A stretch of DNA of 13,648 nt from Candidatus Nanopusillus sp. (GTDB taxonomy: Archaea > Nanobdellota > Nanobdellia > Nanobdellales > Nanobdellaceae). Positions within the stretch are counted from its first letter, which is position 1. Each line of letters starts with the position of its first letter. A model generated the notes under the pieces. The model did not search any database, was not told the DNA's origin, and saw nothing but the letters and a program-made list of their open reading frames with translations. The DNA lies in assembly GCA_046533775.1 (NCBI GenBank), contig JAWDOO010000012.1:1-13648 (forward strand), written 5' to 3'. Position numbers and translations under genes: made by a program. This document shows, one piece after another, positions 168 to 13,648 of the stretch.

Positions 168-240
168 TGGGACCGCGGGGATTTGAACCCCGGACCTCCA
201 CCTTGTAAGGGTGGCGTCATAGCCACTAGACCACGGTCCC
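168..240 (-). tRNA. tRNA-Val (anticodon UAC)
   Basis: Reverse complement is GGGACCG-TG-GTCT-AGTGGCTA-TGAC-G-CCACC-CTTACAA-GGTGG-AGGTC-CGGGG-TTCAAAT-CCCCG-CGGTCCC-A. It has a perfect 7-bp acceptor stem, 5-bp anticodon and T stems, a TTCAAAT T-loop and anticodon TAC flanked by T33/A37. There is no encoded CCA. It is a GC-rich island in AT-rich DNA. Confidence 0.93.
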
Positions 241-1943: not shown

Positions 1944-2369
1944 TTAGAAAATATATATTTTAACTGTCATTTCAAGACCTTTTCCATTATTTGCTAATTG
2001 ATATAAATTCCATTCATTTGTTATCATCTTTACTTTACCATCTAGGTTATTATCTGGTAATATTTCTACTGGTTGTCTTTTTATATATTTTTCTAATTTA
2101 CTATTCTGAGGTCCTTCATAAGAAACGTCAAAAACAATTCCTTTTAATCTATATGAATTATATATTCTTTTGTTATATATTGATAAATTATCTATAATTT
2201 TTTTGTAAGAATTATCAGGAACATAAATGCTACTAATTACTTCAAATGGGTTTTCTGGATTTTTAATATTTAGATATGAAGCTCTAGATATATTAAAGAT
2301 ATATATATCTGCACCTACCATCGTTATTGGCCCATTTTTTATATTAACTAATTTATAGTTACCCCACAT
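1944..2369 (-). CDS. Hypothetical protein (141 aa)
   Basis: Uninterrupted ORF co-directional with its neighbours. No motif I can name. Confidence 0.65.
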   Translation of the reverse strand: MWGNYKLVNIKNGPITMVGADIYIFNISRASYLNIKNPENPFEVISSIYVPDNSYKKIIDNLSIYNKRIYNSYRLKGIVFDVSYEGPQNSKLEKYIKRQPVEILPDNNLDGKVKMITNEWNLYQLANNGKGLEMTVKIYIF

Positions 2370-9147: not shown

Positions 9148-9220
9148 TTTTTGATAATCATTTTTGAAATTCAAGAATATAAAGCAATCATTTATATTTT
9201 GGAAAATAGTAAAATTTTAC

Positions 9221-9478
9221 ATGCCATATAATATTGAATATGAATTTAAGATTCCAAAATATATAATAGAAGGGGTTTTAGATGAATATAATTCTGAAAA
9301 TTTGCATAAGAATGCAGATATTATGATAAAAAGATTAATAATGGATTATATATTAAATAAATATCCAGATCTATTTGATATAGATGATAAAAAATATGAA
9401 GAGATTATAAAAAATATGAAAATCGAAGACAGGGGAAATAAATATATCTATGTTTATATATATGTAGATCAAAATTAA
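9221..9478 (+). CDS. Hypothetical small protein (85 aa from the first ATG; the ORF track extends it to a TTG at 9164)
   Basis: Open frame ending at 9478. The first ATG is at 9221 (MPYNIEYEF...). The 9164 start is TTG with no supporting signal. Acidic, K/E/Y-rich, no recognisable domain. Confidence 0.55.
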   Translation: MPYNIEYEFKIPKYIIEGVLDEYNSENLHKNADIMIKRLIMDYILNKYPDLFDIDDKKYEEIIKNMKIEDRGNKYIYVYIYVDQN

Positions 9479-9482
9479 TTTT

Positions 9483-9899
9483 ATGGATATATCAAAGATA
9501 CCAAAATTTGTAATCTGGGTTGGTGTAGCAGCTTTTATATTGGTTGTGCTATATGCAATATATATATATTATGTAACATCCTATTTACCTCCATATTTGG
9601 AATATTTTACATATAGCTGTCAATATGCAAATGGAACATCTCTTATTATAATTACTGCAAAACAAAATTTGGAAAATGTAACAGTATATAATTTCTATGA
9701 AAATTCATCATGCAATTTAGGAAATATAAATTATGGATCTATGAATGCATGTAGTATAAATAATAATATTATTATAATAAATCCATATGTAAGAGTATAC
9801 TATACTGTAAATGGTAATCAATATGAAGCTATTTTACCATGTCAAATAGTTGAAAGTGGTGGTATATTAAGTGGACTTTTCTCTTTATTTAGTCATTAA
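9483..9899 (+). CDS. Small membrane-anchored/secreted Cys-containing protein (138 aa)
   Basis: N-terminal hydrophobic helix FVIWVGVAAFILVVLYAIYIYYV. The remainder has four Cys and three N-X-S/T sequons (NGT, NVT, NSS). Its stop codon (9897..9899) lies inside copy 1 of the array core repeat. Confidence 0.7.
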   Translation: MDISKIPKFVIWVGVAAFILVVLYAIYIYYVTSYLPPYLEYFTYSCQYANGTSLIIITAKQNLENVTVYNFYENSSCNLGNINYGSMNACSINNNIIIINPYVRVYYTVNGNQYEAILPCQIVESGGILSGLFSLFSH

Positions 9900-9920
9900 A
9901 TAAAAATTAAATAAATAAAG
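9895..9920 (-). repeat. Array core repeat, copy 1 (ATTAAATAAAA tandem; T-rich on the minus strand)
   Basis: attaaataaaaattaaataaataaag. Same element at 10835, 11686, 12390 and 13441. It marks the distal boundary of the array. Confidence 0.85.
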
Positions 9921-9922
9921 AT

Positions 9923-9940
9923 CTTATATTTTTATATAAG
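9923..9940. terminator. Perfect 7-bp hairpin (CTTATAT-TTTT-ATATAAG) flanked by T/A runs; likely bidirectional terminator for convergent genes
   Basis: Inverted repeat read directly from the sequence. It is followed on the plus strand by TATTTTTTAT and on the minus strand by the T-rich core. A 6-7 bp version recurs at 11714..11731 downstream of paralogue C. Confidence 0.45.
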
Positions 9941-9969
9941 AACTCTCTATTTTTTATATAACAATTTAT

Positions 9970-10086
9970 CTAATAATTTTTTAACTGCATATATTCTTCA
10001 AATCTTTCTCTATATCTTTCAGGATTTCCAATTAGATATCTTATAGCTGCTTTAATTGCTTTACTCAATTCTAGCCAGGAGTGAGC
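9970..10086 (-). pseudogene. Fossil 3' end of a C-type paralogue (last ~34 codons), out of frame with and directly abutting paralogue A
   Basis: 9921..10056 aligns to 11712..11849 (3' end plus 3' flank of the 182-aa gene) at ~90% by hand. The -1 frame relative to gene A reads AHSWLELSKAIKAAIRYLIGNPERYRERFEEYMQLKNY*, against gene C ...DIKAAIKYLIEDPEKHREKFEEYMQVNKLLDKLLY*. It has no start codon of its own, is bounded upstream by TGA, and two 1-nt indels alter the tail. Confidence 0.8.
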
Positions 10087-10730
10087 TCACATAATTCTCT
10101 AATAAAGGTTTCTAAATTGTCTAATTTCATTAGTTGCATATACTCATCAGGATTACTTAATAGACATTTTATATGGGAGTAAAGATAATTGTATGCAACA
10201 TTCTCTGGTACATACTCTTTAGTTTTCCAATTTAATCCTTGACCATTATAATCTTCAAGAGAGTTCCCTATTTGTTTTAGATAGGAATTAACTAATGAAA
10301 GAGATTTTCCAGAATATACATCCCAATATAATTTAGATAGTTTATTACGTACATTTATCTTCAATAGTAGTTCTAAACCTTTTTCTAAGTTTTGAATCTT
10401 CTGTTTGTAAGTATTATCATGTTCTGTATAAGGTATGTAAATTAGAATATAGTCTCCAATTGCTGAAAATAGTTGAATATAAAAACTATCTATGCTAGTT
10501 TCTTTTACCAATTTTTCTAATTTTGGTAAGACTTCTGGAGCTTTCTCTTTGGCTAGTTTATATAATCTTTCCAATTTTATTGAATATTCATACATCTTAA
10601 GAAATTCATCAAGAAATCCTGAATGTTCATTCTTATTAAGACTTTCTTCAGCTCTTTGTTTAGTCCATCTTATTCTCTTTTCTATTATCTTAGATTGGTT
10701 TTGATTTGAGGATGAGGATTTTCCTTCCAC
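10071..10730 (-). CDS. Array paralogue A (219 aa), uncharacterised all-alpha protein family
   Basis: Long ORF. The only available start is GTG at 10730..10728, because an in-frame stop lies 10 codons upstream. Shares the family motifs RLYKLAKEKAPEVLPKLEKLV, YKQKIQNLE and the C-terminal HIKCLLSNPDEYMQLMK. No signal peptide or TM segment. Confidence 0.8.
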   Translation of the reverse strand: MEGKSSSSNQNQSKIIEKRIRWTKQRAEESLNKNEHSGFLDEFLKMYEYSIKLERLYKLAKEKAPEVLPKLEKLVKETSIDSFYIQLFSAIGDYILIYIPYTEHDNTYKQKIQNLEKGLELLLKINVRNKLSKLYWDVYSGKSLSLVNSYLKQIGNSLEDYNGQGLNWKTKEYVPENVAYNYLYSHIKCLLSNPDEYMQLMKLDNLETFIRELCELTPG

Positions 10731-10753
10731 AAATAAATATATTATTGAAAATG

Positions 10754-10834
10754 ATTTTTAAATATATCGTTAATATCTATCATCAAATAGTAGTTATATC
10801 AATATCTTCTATAAAATATAGTTGTAAATTAGTT
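10754..10834 (-). repeat. Alpha-type 5' flank module, copy 1 (upstream of paralogue A)
   Basis: Together with the adjacent core, 10754..10860 aligns to 12309..12415 with 9 differences in ~108 columns (hand count, ~92%). Its gene-proximal end carries a TATA-like TTTAAAAAT on the minus strand ~25-33 nt from the GTG. Confidence 0.85.
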
Positions 10835-10859
10835 ATTAAATAAAAATTAAATAAAAAAG
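10835..10859 (-). repeat. Array core repeat, copy 2
   Basis: attaaataaaaattaaataaaaaag. It lies 16 nt downstream (minus sense) of the paralogue B stop. Confidence 0.85.
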
Positions 10860-10875
10860 ATTTTATCAAAAAGTC

Positions 10876-11553
10876 TTATGTATTTTGTTTTTCTGTTTTA
10901 CAGTTACAATATAATCTGCATACTGCTATATCAAGCCATCCTAATGGCTTCTTTCCTACATATTTCATAAATTGATCTTCAAGATCTTTAGGTTTCTCCA
11001 AATAATTAGATATAAAAGACTTAATAATTATAGCTGCATCTTCACGTGCTCTTTCTTCCCTTTGAGATGCAGTTTGATATATTTCTGCTATCTTTTCTAA
11101 TGATATTTCCTTTACTTTTTTATAGAGGTTATACAGACCCTTTATTACTTGTTCGTCTTCTAAAGTTTTCAAACTATCCATAAATTCTTTAATTCTTTCT
11201 GGTGTATATTCCAATAAAAGAGTGTCTGCAATACCTTTCATTAAGCTACTCTTAAAGGTATATTCTTCTATACACTGTTCGAGAGATCTTGGATCTATAG
11301 TTGAAAGATTTTTACATTCTCCAAATTTCTCTAGATTTCCTACTAATGTTAAGAATAATGATAAAGCTTGTGGCATATGTTCTGATATTGATGAGAATGT
11401 CCATCTTATTTCGTATAGATAAGATGAGTATGTTTTTATGACTTCCTCAAATTCTTTCATTTCATTATCTTCTTTTATTTTTTCATCTAGTGTTTTGACC
11501 ATAACCTGTATTATATTGAAGAAGTTTTTAAACTTATCGTTGTTTTTTACCAT
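10876..11553 (-). CDS. Array paralogue B (225 aa), same family, Cys-rich C-terminal tail
   Basis: Long ORF with an ATG start. Motifs YLYEI...HMPQALSLFLTLV, GNLEKFGECK and C-terminal AAIIIKSFISNYLEKPKDLEDQFMKYVG, followed by the tail WLDIAVCRLYCNCKTEKQNT. Confidence 0.85.
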   Translation of the reverse strand: MVKNNDKFKNFFNIIQVMVKTLDEKIKEDNEMKEFEEVIKTYSSYLYEIRWTFSSISEHMPQALSLFLTLVGNLEKFGECKNLSTIDPRSLEQCIEEYTFKSSLMKGIADTLLLEYTPERIKEFMDSLKTLEDEQVIKGLYNLYKKVKEISLEKIAEIYQTASQREERAREDAAIIIKSFISNYLEKPKDLEDQFMKYVGKKPLGWLDIAVCRLYCNCKTEKQNT

Positions 11554-11625
11554 AAAATAATAACTATATCTAATATACCTACATATTTTAATATCCTAAT
11601 TAAAAATATAAATAATGGTTGGACC

Positions 11626-11663
11626 ATGGATAAAAAATATACAACAAAAAGGTGGTATATTAA
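11626..11663. repeat. Beta box, copy 1 (upstream region of paralogue B)
   Basis: atggataaaaaatatacaacaaaaaggtggtatattaa aligns with 13381..13416 atggataaaaatatacaacaaaaattagtatattaa. Confidence 0.7.
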
Positions 11664-11685
11664 ATGAATTCATATATTTATTGTC

Positions 11686-11711
11686 ATTAAATAAAAGATT
11701 AAATAAAAAAG
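11686..11711 (-). repeat. Array core repeat, copy 3
   Basis: attaaataaaagattaaataaaaaag, with a one-base insertion between the two 11-mers. Confidence 0.85.
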
Positions 11712-11744
11712 ATTTTATATTTTTATATAAGAATTCCCTATTTT

Positions 11745-12293
11745 TTAATATAATAATTTATCTAATAATTTGTTAACTTGCATATATTCTTCAAACTTTT
11801 CTCTATGTTTTTCAGGATCTTCAATTAGATATTTTATAGCTGCTTTAATGTCTTCAGACGTTTCTTTATATATTTCTTCTAATGAATCATACTTACGTAT
11901 ATTCTTTTGCAATTTTTCTAAGAAAGTTATATATGTTGCATTAAATACTAATCTAGTCGATAAATGTAACATACTATACTCCAAATTATCTACTTTCTTT
12001 TTATAATCTGGTCCTGTAGGATTTATTTTTTCAATATATTCTCTAAAAGCTCTTATTATACTAGCTTTAAATATATCTGATTCTTCTCCTTTCTCGCATA
12101 GGTCACAACTATTTATTCTTCTTAATAGTAGTTCTAATGTTGTTTCAGCTTGTGGTGCTTTTTTTGATATTTCTTCATATAACTTTTTTACTTCTTCTAA
12201 ATAATTTTTATTATCAATTCTATATTCTTCATCTCTTTGGGCTCTTTCTAACATTTTTTCTAATTCTGATAGATATTCACCAGCCATAATCAA
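11745..12293 (-). CDS. Array paralogue C (182 aa), same family
   Basis: Long ORF (start MIMAGEY; the second ATG at 12287 is equally possible). Motifs KLYEEISKKAPQAETTLELLL, SCDLCEKGE, YKKKVDNLE and C-terminal IKAAIKYLIEDPEKHREKFEEYMQVNK. Confidence 0.85.
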   Translation of the reverse strand: MIMAGEYLSELEKMLERAQRDEEYRIDNKNYLEEVKKLYEEISKKAPQAETTLELLLRRINSCDLCEKGEESDIFKASIIRAFREYIEKINPTGPDYKKKVDNLEYSMLHLSTRLVFNATYITFLEKLQKNIRKYDSLEEIYKETSEDIKAAIKYLIEDPEKHREKFEEYMQVNKLLDKLLY

Positions 12294-12308
12294 TTTTTTA
12301 TTAGAAAA

Positions 12309-12389
12309 ATTTTTAATCTATCGTTAATATATATCATCAAATAGTAGCTATATTAATATCTCCTATAAAAATATAGTTGTAAATTAGTC
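12309..12389 (-). repeat. Alpha-type 5' flank module, copy 2 (upstream of paralogue C)
   Basis: See 10754..10834. ~92% identical including the conserved block atcgttaatat.tatcatcaaatagtag.tatat.aatatct.ctataaaa. Confidence 0.85.
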
Positions 12390-12414
12390 ATTAAATAAAA
12401 ACTAAATAAAAAAG
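12390..12414 (-). repeat. Array core repeat, copy 4
   Basis: attaaataaaaactaaataaaaaag. Confidence 0.85.
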
Positions 12415-12477
12415 AATTATATTAATTTATTTTATGAACTATTCCTAATATATTTAATTAATAAACTTTCTATCTTT

Positions 12478-13257
12478 TTAATAAATCCCTTTGAGATATT
12501 TAAGAAATATCCTTTCTATCTTTATATTAAATCCATTCGTATTCTTGCGGAAAAGTTCTTCTATAATATCTTCAATATATTTGGATGCCTTTTGATATGC
12601 TAAGTCGGTCCATTCTATTTGTTTCTGAATATAGTCCTGAATTGCATGAATATAATTTTGAACATCATTAGATGCTTTTAAACGTTTTATTTGTCCAATC
12701 ATTTTATCATTAATTGATGAGTTTTCAGGGGTGCTTAAGATATCGTCTAAGGCATAGTATTCTGTTAACATATAAGCTGCTAATAAGGTTTTATATACTT
12801 CGAGTTTTGATAGAGATCTTAAAACATATAGTATATTCATAATTTCTTTACCATAATTTAGTTGTGTAGTATATAATCCTTCAAGATGTTTATTAATAAT
12901 TCTTATTATATTAGTCTTAAAGTGATTTATATATGTATATTGATAAATAAGTGACCTTTTATGTGGATCATATGGATTTAAATAAGTTTCTTCTTTGCAT
13001 GAAACAGAGTTATCTATCTTTTTTAGTAATTCATCTAGAGTCTTTCCATATACTTCGTATAGTTTGTTGTGTAATTTTTGTAATTCTTTTTGATACTCTT
13101 CATATGAATTTTTTGCATACTCTACTAATTTTTCTCCATATTTTTTTACAAACTCTGTTCCCAATTCTTCTTCATATAAATTCGTCGGCGCTGTACTCAA
13201 TAATTTATATATCCAGAAATAAACCTCTGAATTTAAATTAATGAATTTATCTGACAT
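12478..13257 (-). CDS. Array paralogue D (259 aa), most divergent member of the family
   Basis: Long ORF with an ATG start. Retains KLYEVYGKTLDELLKKIDNSVSCKEE (compare C: KLYEEISKKAPQAETTLELLLRRINSCDLCEKGEE). The C-terminal motif is only weakly recognisable (IHAIQDYIQKQ). Its 3' flank is unique. Confidence 0.8.
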   Translation of the reverse strand: MSDKFINLNSEVYFWIYKLLSTAPTNLYEEELGTEFVKKYGEKLVEYAKNSYEEYQKELQKLHNKLYEVYGKTLDELLKKIDNSVSCKEETYLNPYDPHKRSLIYQYTYINHFKTNIIRIINKHLEGLYTTQLNYGKEIMNILYVLRSLSKLEVYKTLLAAYMLTEYYALDDILSTPENSSINDKMIGQIKRLKASNDVQNYIHAIQDYIQKQIEWTDLAYQKASKYIEDIIEELFRKNTNGFNIKIERIFLKYLKGIY

Positions 13258-13380
13258 ACTTAAATTATTGTTAAAAAAATTTTAAATTTATTGTTTATAC
13301 TGATCACAAAATAGTAACTATAGTAGATACATCCCACGTACTTTAATATTTAGCTTAGAATATATTGTAATGATTAAACT

Positions 13381-13416
13381 ATGGATAAAAATATACAACA
13401 AAAATTAGTATATTAA
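13381..13416. repeat. Beta box, copy 2 (upstream region of paralogue D)
   Basis: See 11626..11663. Confidence 0.7.
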
Positions 13417-13440
13417 GGAGATTTTTCTTCCCATTTGATT

Positions 13441-13464
13441 ATTAAATAAAAATTAAATAAAAAG
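13441..13464 (-). repeat. Array core repeat, copy 5
   Basis: attaaataaaaattaaataaaaag, with the A-run one base shorter than in copies 2-4. Confidence 0.85.
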
Positions 13465-13545
13465 ATTTTATTAAAAAGCCTTATGTATTTTGTTTTTCTG
13501 TTTTATAGTCACAATATAATTTATATGCTGCTATATCAATCTATC

Positions 13546-13648
13546 TTAATGTTTCATTCCTGCATATTTCATAAGTTGATCTTCATTATCTTTAGGATTT
13601 CTGAAATAATCCACTAGAAGATATCTAATACTTTCACCTGCACTTGCA
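13546..13648 (-). CDS. Array paralogue E (B-type), 3' end only; C-terminally truncated relative to B, possibly decaying
   Basis: The minus-strand frame open to the window edge reads ...ASAGESIRYLLVDYFRNPKDNEDQLMKYAGMKH*, against B ...IIIKSFISNYLEKPKDLEDQFMKYVGKKPLGW.... 13465..13610 aligns to 10860..11007 at ~87% (hand count). Not in the ORF track because it is cut by the window end. Confidence 0.55.
   Translation of the reverse strand, partial: ASAGESIRYLLVDYFRNPKDNEDQLMKYAGMKH

Follow-up and report, generated by a model that had tools for sequence, protein, structure and literature searches.

A tandem array of fast-diverging paralogous genes lies at one end of contig JAWDOO010000012.1 from Candidatus Nanopusillus sp. 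(assembly GCA_046533775.1), a stretch of 13,648 nucleotides (nt) with a guanine-plus-cytosine (GC) content of 24% that we analyzed at its full length and refer to as the window. The array borders p138, a small membrane-protein gene, and in related strains it occupies the interval between p138 and the RFC large-subunit gene (RFCL), where we found its gene content to change from strain to strain. Nanopusillus is an ectosymbiotic nanoarchaeon that lives on Acidilobus (PMC4935971). The preliminary description of this DNA, made from the sequence alone, had listed four complete minus-strand open reading frames (ORFs; A 10071-10730, B 10876-11553, C 11745-12293 and D 12478-13257), a partial gene E from 13546 onward and a fossil, and had stated that the array leaves the window. 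All of these were present, the fossil as 32 codons at 9970-10068. The window spans the contig from end to end, and the array thus continues beyond the available sequence. The ORF coordinates held, except that we moved the start codons of B and C. The gap between TATA box and start codon is 20–23 nt in the homologous promoters described below, and therefore B most likely starts at ATG 11502, giving 208 amino acids (aa) in agreement with the NCBI call, and C most likely starts at ATG 12287, giving 180 aa. The codons at 11503-11553 of the mechanically called B ORF, with the N-terminal sequence MVKNNDKFKNF, are translated promoter module.

We grouped the genes found in the islands of related strains under five subtypes (A, B, C, C′ and D), to which the minus-strand genes of the window could be assigned. 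Gene A (10071..10730; 219 aa, GTG start) is of the A subtype, scoring 302 bits against the A-subtype hidden Markov model (HMM), and is 47–52% identical to A genes in other strains. Gene B (10876..11502; 208 aa), of the B subtype, has a Cys-rich C-terminal tail and is 46% identical to Nps_02355 of N. acidilobi. Gene C (11745..12287; 180 aa; 366 bits against the C-subtype HMM) and gene D (12478..13257; 259 aa; 494 bits against the D-subtype HMM) share 77–79% and 67–71% identity with C and D genes in other strains, respectively. Gene E (13546..13648), which the contig end truncates, is the 3′ end of a B-type gene; it shares 79% identity with the C-terminus of a 398-aa double-B protein of L006, with both proteins ending in MKYAGMKH, and is probably a fused double-B gene. 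ORFs of ~380–415 aa in which two B-type cassettes are fused were observed in several strains (L003 14554-15801, L006 9119-10315, L020 10275-11510, and others).

Remnants of family genes were found between the intact ones. Directly downstream of gene A lies fossil F (9970..10068, minus strand), the 3′ end of a C-type gene, which is 68% identical at the aa level to residues 146-173 of gene C (BLASTP E 2e-11) and 81% identical to it over 96 nt of DNA (repeat D5). A B-type fossil of the Cys-rich tail (13481..13545, minus strand), separated from gene E by a stop codon, showed 68–72% identity to the tails of B and Nps_02355 by tblastn; it has the pattern C-x4-6-C-x-C...TEKQNT and falls within repeat D2, which is 82% identical over 119 nt.

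Genes A to D had each been described as an independent unit, and we did find a TATA box and a T-rich 3′ block for every one of them. On the minus strand, the promoter module of A (10754..10793) has its TATA box at 10754-10763 and its inverted-repeat block at 10769-10793, with 2 mismatches to the consensus in its 27-nt core and a TATA-to-start gap of 23 nt. That of C (12309..12347) has its TATA box at 12309-12318, its inverted-repeat block at 12323-12347, 4 core mismatches and a gap of 21 nt. The module of B (11524..11563; TATA 11524-11533) is degenerate, with an inverted-repeat remnant at 11539-11563 and a gap of 21 nt, and that of D (13278..13317; TATA 13278-13287; repeat family D1) likewise retains an inverted-repeat remnant (13293-13317), with a gap of 20 nt.

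A conserved block of ~45 nt of this kind precedes each gene of each subtype, with the consensus TAtTACTAT-N-T-N-aTaATAGATAgTAACgATA-N-ATTTAAAAAT. The block is a 7-nt inverted repeat (TTACTAT / ATAGTAA) with a 10-nt spacer, abutting the TATA box. Across 91 unique modules, the pairwise identity of the core was 82% and fell to a background of 34% within 40 nt of the coding region. The 27-nt core, at up to 5 mismatches, matched 32 times in 42 kb of islands and 0 times in 495 kb of other sequence examined. In 84 of 86 cassettes the distance from the TATA block to the start codon was 20–23 nt, which implies leaderless or near-leaderless mRNAs. Each cassette is a transcription unit of its own, probably a leaderless one.

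We also observed that the A(n)T(n) tract at the TATA box (for example, window 10754-10763, and L003 compared with L041) ranges over A4-7 and T3-7. Its length differed in 29 of 56 cassette pairs whose first 90 coding nt were at least 90% identical, a count in which assembly error is possible. A change in tract length alters the TATA-to-AUG distance of a presumably leaderless mRNA; it might act as a switch for phase variation, or be no more than ordinary indel noise or an assembly artifact.

The left border of the array is p138 (9483..9899, plus strand), which encodes a small membrane protein with one N-terminal transmembrane (TM) segment and a maximum 19-residue Kyte-Doolittle hydropathy, KD(19), of 2.68. 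It is 90% identical to its N. acidilobi orthologue and was found in every Nanoarchaeota locus examined. Together with p102 it forms a plus-strand pair (window 9164-9899) whose place between the genes for the small and large RFC subunits is conserved across Nanoarchaeota; Pfam and NCBIfam gave no match for either, and the single-TM p138 protein contains Cys.

The edges of the cassettes carry copies of these flanking genes. Most genes end in AAAATCTTTTTTATTTAATTTTTATTTAATGAC, a T-rich terminator that corresponds to the p138 stop region in reverse complement. As much as 45 nt of coding sequence from p138 often comes after it, and some junctions add the first dozen or so codons of RFCL. In the window, the A/T-rich terminator block at 9887..9915, which overlaps the p138 stop codon, serves as the reference copy of this post-cassette repeat, and the fossil p138 copies within the array derive from the last ~45 nt of this gene. 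Members of repeat family D6 lie at 9887, 10827, 12382 and 13433, with a D3 copy at 11683. Those downstream of B (10827..10855) and of D (12382..12410) are D6 copies of the terminator and p138 stop, each at 93% identity. A unit junction at 11613..11711 is made up of an RFCL-start fossil (11613-11636), a p138 3′-end fossil (11646-11682) and a terminator (11683-11711), corresponding to repeats D19, D12 and D3, with the fossils recognized by comparison with the intact N. acidilobi sequences of the RFCL start and the p138 tail. The second unit junction, at 13368..13461, has the same build, with an RFCL-start fossil (13368-13391), a p138-tail fossil (13404-13432) and a terminator (13433-13461; D19, D4 and D6), and the two junctions share an identical breakpoint.

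The array thus has a cassette structure with a family-specific promoter, and it carries a history of duplication and recombination. It grew by tandem duplication of the whole p138-RFCL interval, including the edges of both flanking genes, which is why fossil pieces of the two genes are present in the copies. The duplicated edges and the promoter modules now supply every cassette with homologous borders for unequal crossing-over, and homologous recombination between these conserved boundaries continually remodels the array. Such borders account for gain, loss and reordering of cassettes, for the ~400-aa double-B fusions, for replacement, and for the C-type tail fossil behind A-type genes.

We compared the encoded proteins by profile methods, as pairwise BLASTP matches among A–D were weak (E 6e-4 to 0.4); B versus E was clear (50% identity, E 2e-6). 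HHalign probabilities between subtype profiles were 96.7–96.8% for A-B, B-C′, C-C′ and C′-D, 91.7% for C-D, 89% for A-C and 85% for B-C, compared with at most 3.3% for reversed-sequence controls of identical composition. The profile alignments were collinear and near full length, with A and D connected transitively only. A–D, partial E and the fossil belong to one divergent family, as had been proposed from four shared motifs. Those motifs are all present and coincide with conserved columns of a 22-member family alignment, in which we noted P-x-A...L..L, CK, I-x-N-L..G-L-E-x-L and A-S..I...I..LL..P; the alignment contains no conserved stretch of 7–10 columns.

The proteins had been described as entirely helical in appearance and free of signal peptides and TM segments. 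Consistent with this, they are soluble, with an isoelectric point of 5.2–7.6, a maximum KD(19) of at most 1.21 and no hydrophobic N-terminus, and confident AlphaFold2 predictions are entirely helical. The model of C (predicted local distance difference test score, pLDDT, 93.4; predicted template-modeling score, pTM, 0.88) contains ten helices, and that of B (pLDDT 89.8, pTM 0.85) has its helices in the same order.

Profile and structure searches placed the family nowhere, in line with the initial impression that it holds no known domain. In Pfam and NCBIfam the best matches for A–D fell below curated cut-offs, at E 0.006 or worse, and a domain scan of 48 family members returned no consistent family. 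The family profile reached a best E of 0.09 against all PDB sequences. Foldseek searches with the B and C models gave nothing at E<1e-3 against the PDB, where the best TM-score was ~0.38, to designed helical repeat proteins, and nothing at E<1e-3 against the BFVD viral structure library. PADLOC returned fragmentary low scores only (18 bits over 40 residues; 15 bits) and no partner genes, and the best PHROGs match (E 2.5e-4) covered 30 residues of a 53-position model of unknown function. IMG/VR held no match to the proteins or the promoter module, and neither INPHARED phages (tblastn) nor PLSDB plasmids held relatives or a promoter-module match. Sub-threshold matches to phasin, ApoLp-III, TipAS and BAR-like (coiled or helical) proteins were rejected as compositional. 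An exhaustive HMMER search of 1.84 billion cluster representatives retrieved only 60 clusters at E<1e-3, with proteins of ~200–290 aa, or ~400 aa for fused doubles, and every named cluster among them was Nanopusillus or Nanobsidianus. The family is an orphan with no detectable relatives. We found no description of the locus, family or promoter module in the literature searched; Jarett et al. (2018) treat single-nucleotide polymorphism density in surface proteins, and not the p138/RFCL island.

We next turn to the position of the array in other genomes. Ten more distant Nanoarchaeota loci, including those of Nanobdella, strain YN1, Nanoclepta and other Nanopusillaceae, have the order RFC-small, p102, p138, RFC-large and are empty, with 9–48 nt between p138 and RFCL. 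In the Nanopusillus/Nanobsidianus clade, in which RFC-small is 94–99% identical, the array lies on the opposite strand in the p138-to-RFCL interval. Complete islands in this clade contain 0–5 ORFs; the window has at least five, and one genome (GCA_003086475.1, over two contigs) has at least seven cassettes. A static locus shared with distant relatives is thus the opposite of what we found: the site is empty in related genera and holds 0 to at least 7 cassettes in close strains.

Among the 30-plus islands examined, almost every one had a subtype order of its own. Starting at p138, the cassettes are A, B in N. acidilobi 7A; B, C′, A in Nst1; D, C′, A, BB, C in AB-777_F03; a single C in RSNP5; BB, D in RSNS15; C′, BB in CON-C; A, C′, A, D, BB in L031; A, C, C′, D, A in L033; and fossil, A, B, C, D, E and onward in the window. 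Additional combinations, of 1–5 genes, came from 26 further metagenome contigs with the exact module; in all 26, a family ORF stood behind each module, and wherever flanking genes were visible, they were always RFCL and/or p138. The "empty" site of RSNS12 (L007) still holds the two ends, 5′ and 3′, of an A-type pseudogene with an internal deletion. Contig L048 matches N. acidilobi 7A at 97% identity on either side, the A-type gene included, and where 7A has its B-type gene L048 has a 288-aa cassette of an unrelated subtype, a clean cassette replacement. We thus found tandem paralogues at one locus whose copy number, order and combinations vary within a species-level group, and in the sequences examined the p138/RFCL island is the most variable stretch amid surroundings that are 94–99% identical.

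Family members were also seen at second sites in divergent contigs. In L065 (625-1317), one lies between unrelated genes of 128 and 143 aa, in which we found no known domains, and sister contigs (for example, L067 2367-2490) retain only a 3′ fossil of ~20 codons at this site. In L063 (572-2784), three tandem members adjoin a 74-aa gene with a weak DUF6364 match.

We then asked how fast the island genes diverge between the window and the other strains. For eleven flanking genes, non-synonymous divergence (dN) was 0.005–0.054, with a ratio to synonymous divergence (dN/dS) of 0.03–0.25; for island genes, dN was 0.11–0.71. For pooled pairs at a proportion of synonymous differences (pS) of 0.1–0.2, the ratio of the non-synonymous proportion to it (pN/pS) was 0.58–0.89 across island subtypes, compared with 0.07 for RFC-small and 0.11 for RFC-large in the same pS range. 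Protein evolution in the island is therefore approximately ten-fold faster than in RFC and neighboring genes, as judged from these sequence comparisons. The closest B pairs reached a pN/pS of 1.23 and the closest C pairs 1.13, values that suggest positive selection; because dS is imprecise at 24% GC, we do not word this more strongly. Single-pair dN/dS values above 1 for A and B were set aside, as those pairs are ~50% identical and synonymous sites saturate early at 24% GC.

This divergence, increased about ten-fold at non-synonymous sites, was accompanied by intact ORFs. We found ~95 of them, of 180–430 codons. The stop-creating share of non-synonymous mutations is ~9–10%, and unconstrained copies would be expected to show 6–9 nonsense changes per gene at the divergence typical within a subtype; none were seen (P(none) ~1e-3 per gene), and the genes are therefore not decaying. 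In the C subtype, variability was higher at polar than at hydrophobic positions (0.84 vs. 0.61 bits, p = 0.007) and showed a 100-degree periodicity along the predicted helices (p ~0.02), a pattern that fits a conserved core with a changing surface in the modeled fold. From this, we concluded that both the ORFs and the fold are maintained.

At least one member of the family is expressed: the B-type protein Nps_02355 accounts for 0.44% of spectra in the N. acidilobi-Acidilobus co-culture proteome (PMC4935971 Supplementary Data 1), in which it ranks 55 by spectral counts, 67 by IDP-MS1 and 56 by MIT (PMC4935971). RFC subunits rank 17 and 75 in the same proteome. Both Nps_02355 and the A-type Nps_02360 are listed there without a TM domain or signal peptide (PMC4935971).

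Outside the array, the window has genes for thioredoxin reductase, TatD, aldehyde dehydrogenase, a nuclease of the ExoIII type and the RFC small subunit, the last of which is 98% identical to its counterparts in Candidatus Nanopusillus acidilobi 7A and Nanobsidianus stetteri. The sole RNA gene detected by ARAGORN and Rfam is a tRNA-Val (TAC) at 168-240 (minus strand), 9.6 kb from the array and unrelated to it. A 141-aa hypothetical protein with an isoelectric point of 9.3 (1944-2369, minus strand) evolves far faster than its neighbors, with 56–74% identity to orthologues in four related strains and a dN/dS of ~0.6–1.2, compared with 92–98% and ~0.1 for the adjoining genes. Elsewhere, ~540 extra bases lie between RFC-small and p102 in Nanoarchaeota archaeon YN1 (L011 10957-11499) and not in other genomes. 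The RFC small-subunit gene of L019 (1215-3443), L026 (378-1832) and L028 (6548-9280) matched in 2–3 separated pieces, with the break at approximately residue 74–85, near the P-loop, and gaps of ~0.45–1.3 kb, the pattern expected for intein insertions in some Nanoarchaeota and other archaeal metagenome-assembled genomes.

What might such an array do? The locus had been suggested to belong to a conflict or interaction system, a reading whose evolutionary part stood up, given a family placed in no known fold and a locus that is far from static; its functional part we still infer, now on a better footing. Soluble helical-bundle or repeat-like proteins with a conserved core and a variable surface are typical binding modules, and a strain-specific, fast-diversifying repertoire in an obligate ectosymbiont with a 600-kb genome makes an antagonistic interaction the most plausible setting. 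We therefore favor, with moderate confidence, the view that the array encodes cytoplasmic binding or adaptor proteins, a diversifying repertoire directed at a variable partner in some antagonistic interaction, such that strains would differ in the variants carried. The most likely partners would be crenarchaeal host proteins at or across the cell-cell contact, or proteins of nanoarchaeal viruses.

Several points weigh against this interpretation. In most bins gene-wide pN/pS does not reach 1, and part of the divergence signal is explained by relaxed constraint. A role in binding and conflict is suggested by evolutionary pattern and by analogy. Neither a signal peptide nor a membrane anchor is present in the proteins, and action on the host would therefore need a transfer route. 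Strains with one or no cassette exist, and thus the family is dispensable in some settings at least; Nps_02360 was not detected in the N. acidilobi proteome. The rule of a single hot spot also has exceptions, since in L063 and L065 genes of the family, preceded by the same promoter module, stand in different surroundings.

A more specific version of the repertoire, which we consider rather unlikely, is that the cassettes are strain-specific, signal-less effectors passed through the cell-cell junction into the crenarchaeal host, where they would set host range or the efficiency of exploitation. Individual cassettes would perhaps be switched by A(n)T(n) length, a change in which would displace the start of transcription with respect to the AUG of a leaderless mRNA. 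If true, this would make the island an archaeal contingency locus of a new mechanistic type.

The same divergence could instead reflect a lineage-specific gene duplicated at a recombination-prone spot, with dispensable copies under relaxed constraint slowly decaying and playing no role in conflict. Such an origin would agree with pN/pS values of 0.6–0.9, under 1 in most bins, with the frequent fossils and truncations (F, the E tail, and the L007 and L067 remnants), with strains having 0–1 genes, and with the fact that one of the two N. acidilobi members went undetected by proteomics. We nevertheless regard it as unlikely, given that ~95 ORFs are intact where neutrality would predict 6–9 nonsense changes per gene, that the promoter modules are much better conserved than the coding regions, and that the hydrophobic core and predicted fold are kept across subtypes at ~20% identity. 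Nps_02355 is, moreover, among the ~60 most abundant proteins, and a reduced 600-kb genome is unlikely to keep up to 1% of its genes as junk. Tandem arrays of variable content are also the usual look of orphan immunity clusters, and the island, with its small, soluble, fast-evolving proteins that lack known domains and vary in copy number and content between strains, could be read as an immunity or antitoxin-type array directed at polymorphic toxins of competitors or of the host. For that we would expect some trace of the toxins, yet no toxin gene or toxin C-terminal remnant lies by any p138/RFCL island, where the neighbors are always p138 and RFCL, and PADLOC and Pfam gave no immunity or antitoxin match. 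The subtypes combine freely with no conserved two-gene pairing, and each gene has its own promoter, which leaves this explanation very unlikely.

A row of small orphan proteins with promoters in common is a typical feature of phage anti-defense islands, which raises the question of whether the cassettes are anti-defense or accessory cargo of an integrated mobile element or virus whose target is the intergenic site between p138 and RFCL. Such cargo would fit presence or absence at one exact position that is empty in related genera, the module-bearing family genes elsewhere in L063 and L065, and the presence/absence polymorphism at the L065 site. We found no integrase or transposase ORF in the window or in 30-plus related islands, however, no tRNA or att-like repeat at the borders, and no GC shift, with the array matching the surrounding sequence; the cassette borders copy local chromosomal flanks, which indicates endogenous duplication, and the absence of relatives and promoter-module matches in IMG/VR, INPHARED and PLSDB points the same way. 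We judge mobile cargo to be highly improbable. The location of the array between the RFC small- and large-subunit genes, and the abundance of a cytoplasmic B-type protein near that of RFC subunits (rank 55 vs. 17 and 75), might alternatively suggest accessory factors of DNA replication, such as partners of the clamp or clamp loader. Yet the family is absent from other Nanoarchaeota with the same RFC cluster and from at least one strain within the clade, it is present in 0 to at least 7 copies, its rate of evolution is ten times that of RFC, and its genes lie on the opposite strand with their own promoters. No canonical PIP-box was seen on reading the conserved C-termini by eye, with no formal scan. 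A role in replication is thus extremely improbable.

The repertoire of binding proteins that we favor can be set beside several known systems. Phage and mobile-element anti-defense islands, such as acr loci with Aca-controlled promoters, encode small orphan proteins with novel folds and show extreme turnover at a fixed position. The Nanopusillus island resembles them in its small orphan proteins, its turnover at a fixed site and its inverted-repeat promoters, which suggest a dedicated regulator. It differs in being chromosomal, with no mobile-element genes and no helix-turn-helix regulator gene in the island, in having one promoter per gene and no operon, and in lacking relatives in viral collections. 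The variable surface lipoprotein loci (vsp/vlp type) of Mycoplasma are arrays of individually transcribed genes in a reduced genome, with a conserved promoter cassette before each divergent gene, a strain-variable number of genes and a homopolymer tract in the promoter. The likeness of the island to these loci extends to the reduced genome of a symbiont or parasite, a conserved promoter per gene and variable gene number, and the A(n)T(n) tract may be a counterpart of the homopolymer tract. In contrast to vsp/vlp, the island proteins have no signal peptide or lipobox and no sign of surface exposure, and the promoter is archaeal, with a TATA box and probably a leaderless mRNA.

Within the archaea, Thermococcales carry a hypervariable module centered on an immunoglobulin (Ig)-domain protein, which has been interpreted as a conflict or self/non-self system (PMC8416519). 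Both are archaeal loci with hypervariable gene content and a conflict interpretation, but the module as described there comprises a large Ig-domain protein and variable downstream genes, whereas the Nanopusillus island consists of one small helical paralogous family, with no Ig domain and no shared genes (PMC8416519). Closest in architecture, among described cases, are the lpl (lipoprotein-like) genes of Staphylococcus aureus. These are tandem paralogues in the nuSa-alpha island whose shared conserved blocks are sites of homologous recombination (Tsuru and Kobayashi, 2008; PMC2568036), and whose copy number, order and combinations vary within the species, with a presumed role in host interaction (PMC2568036). 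Tandem paralogues at one island, shared conserved blocks, strain-variable content and presumed host interaction are thus common to both. In lpl, the conserved block is a central region within the ORF, whereas the Nanopusillus blocks lie between ORFs (promoter, and terminator and flank fossils), together with a short C-terminal helix. The lpl products are lipoproteins with signal peptides, whereas the Nanopusillus proteins are archaeal, cytoplasmic and all-helical by prediction, with no kinship in sequence or fold. Diversifying tandem paralogue arrays are therefore already known, and what appears to be new here, as judged from the literature searched, is the protein family, the promoter module and the hot spot.

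For Nanopusillus, the island shows a reduced archaeal genome building a diversifying gene array without mobile-element machinery, from an inverted-repeat family promoter, leaderless spacing, and borders made of fossil copies from two flanking genes. It takes up as much as ~1% of the genes in a 600-kb genome, and it is usable as a natural strain-typing marker for hot-spring Nanopusillus populations. Nanoarchaeota are the archetypal archaeal ectosymbionts, and the genes of this island offer concrete candidates for the determinants of their interaction and host specificity.

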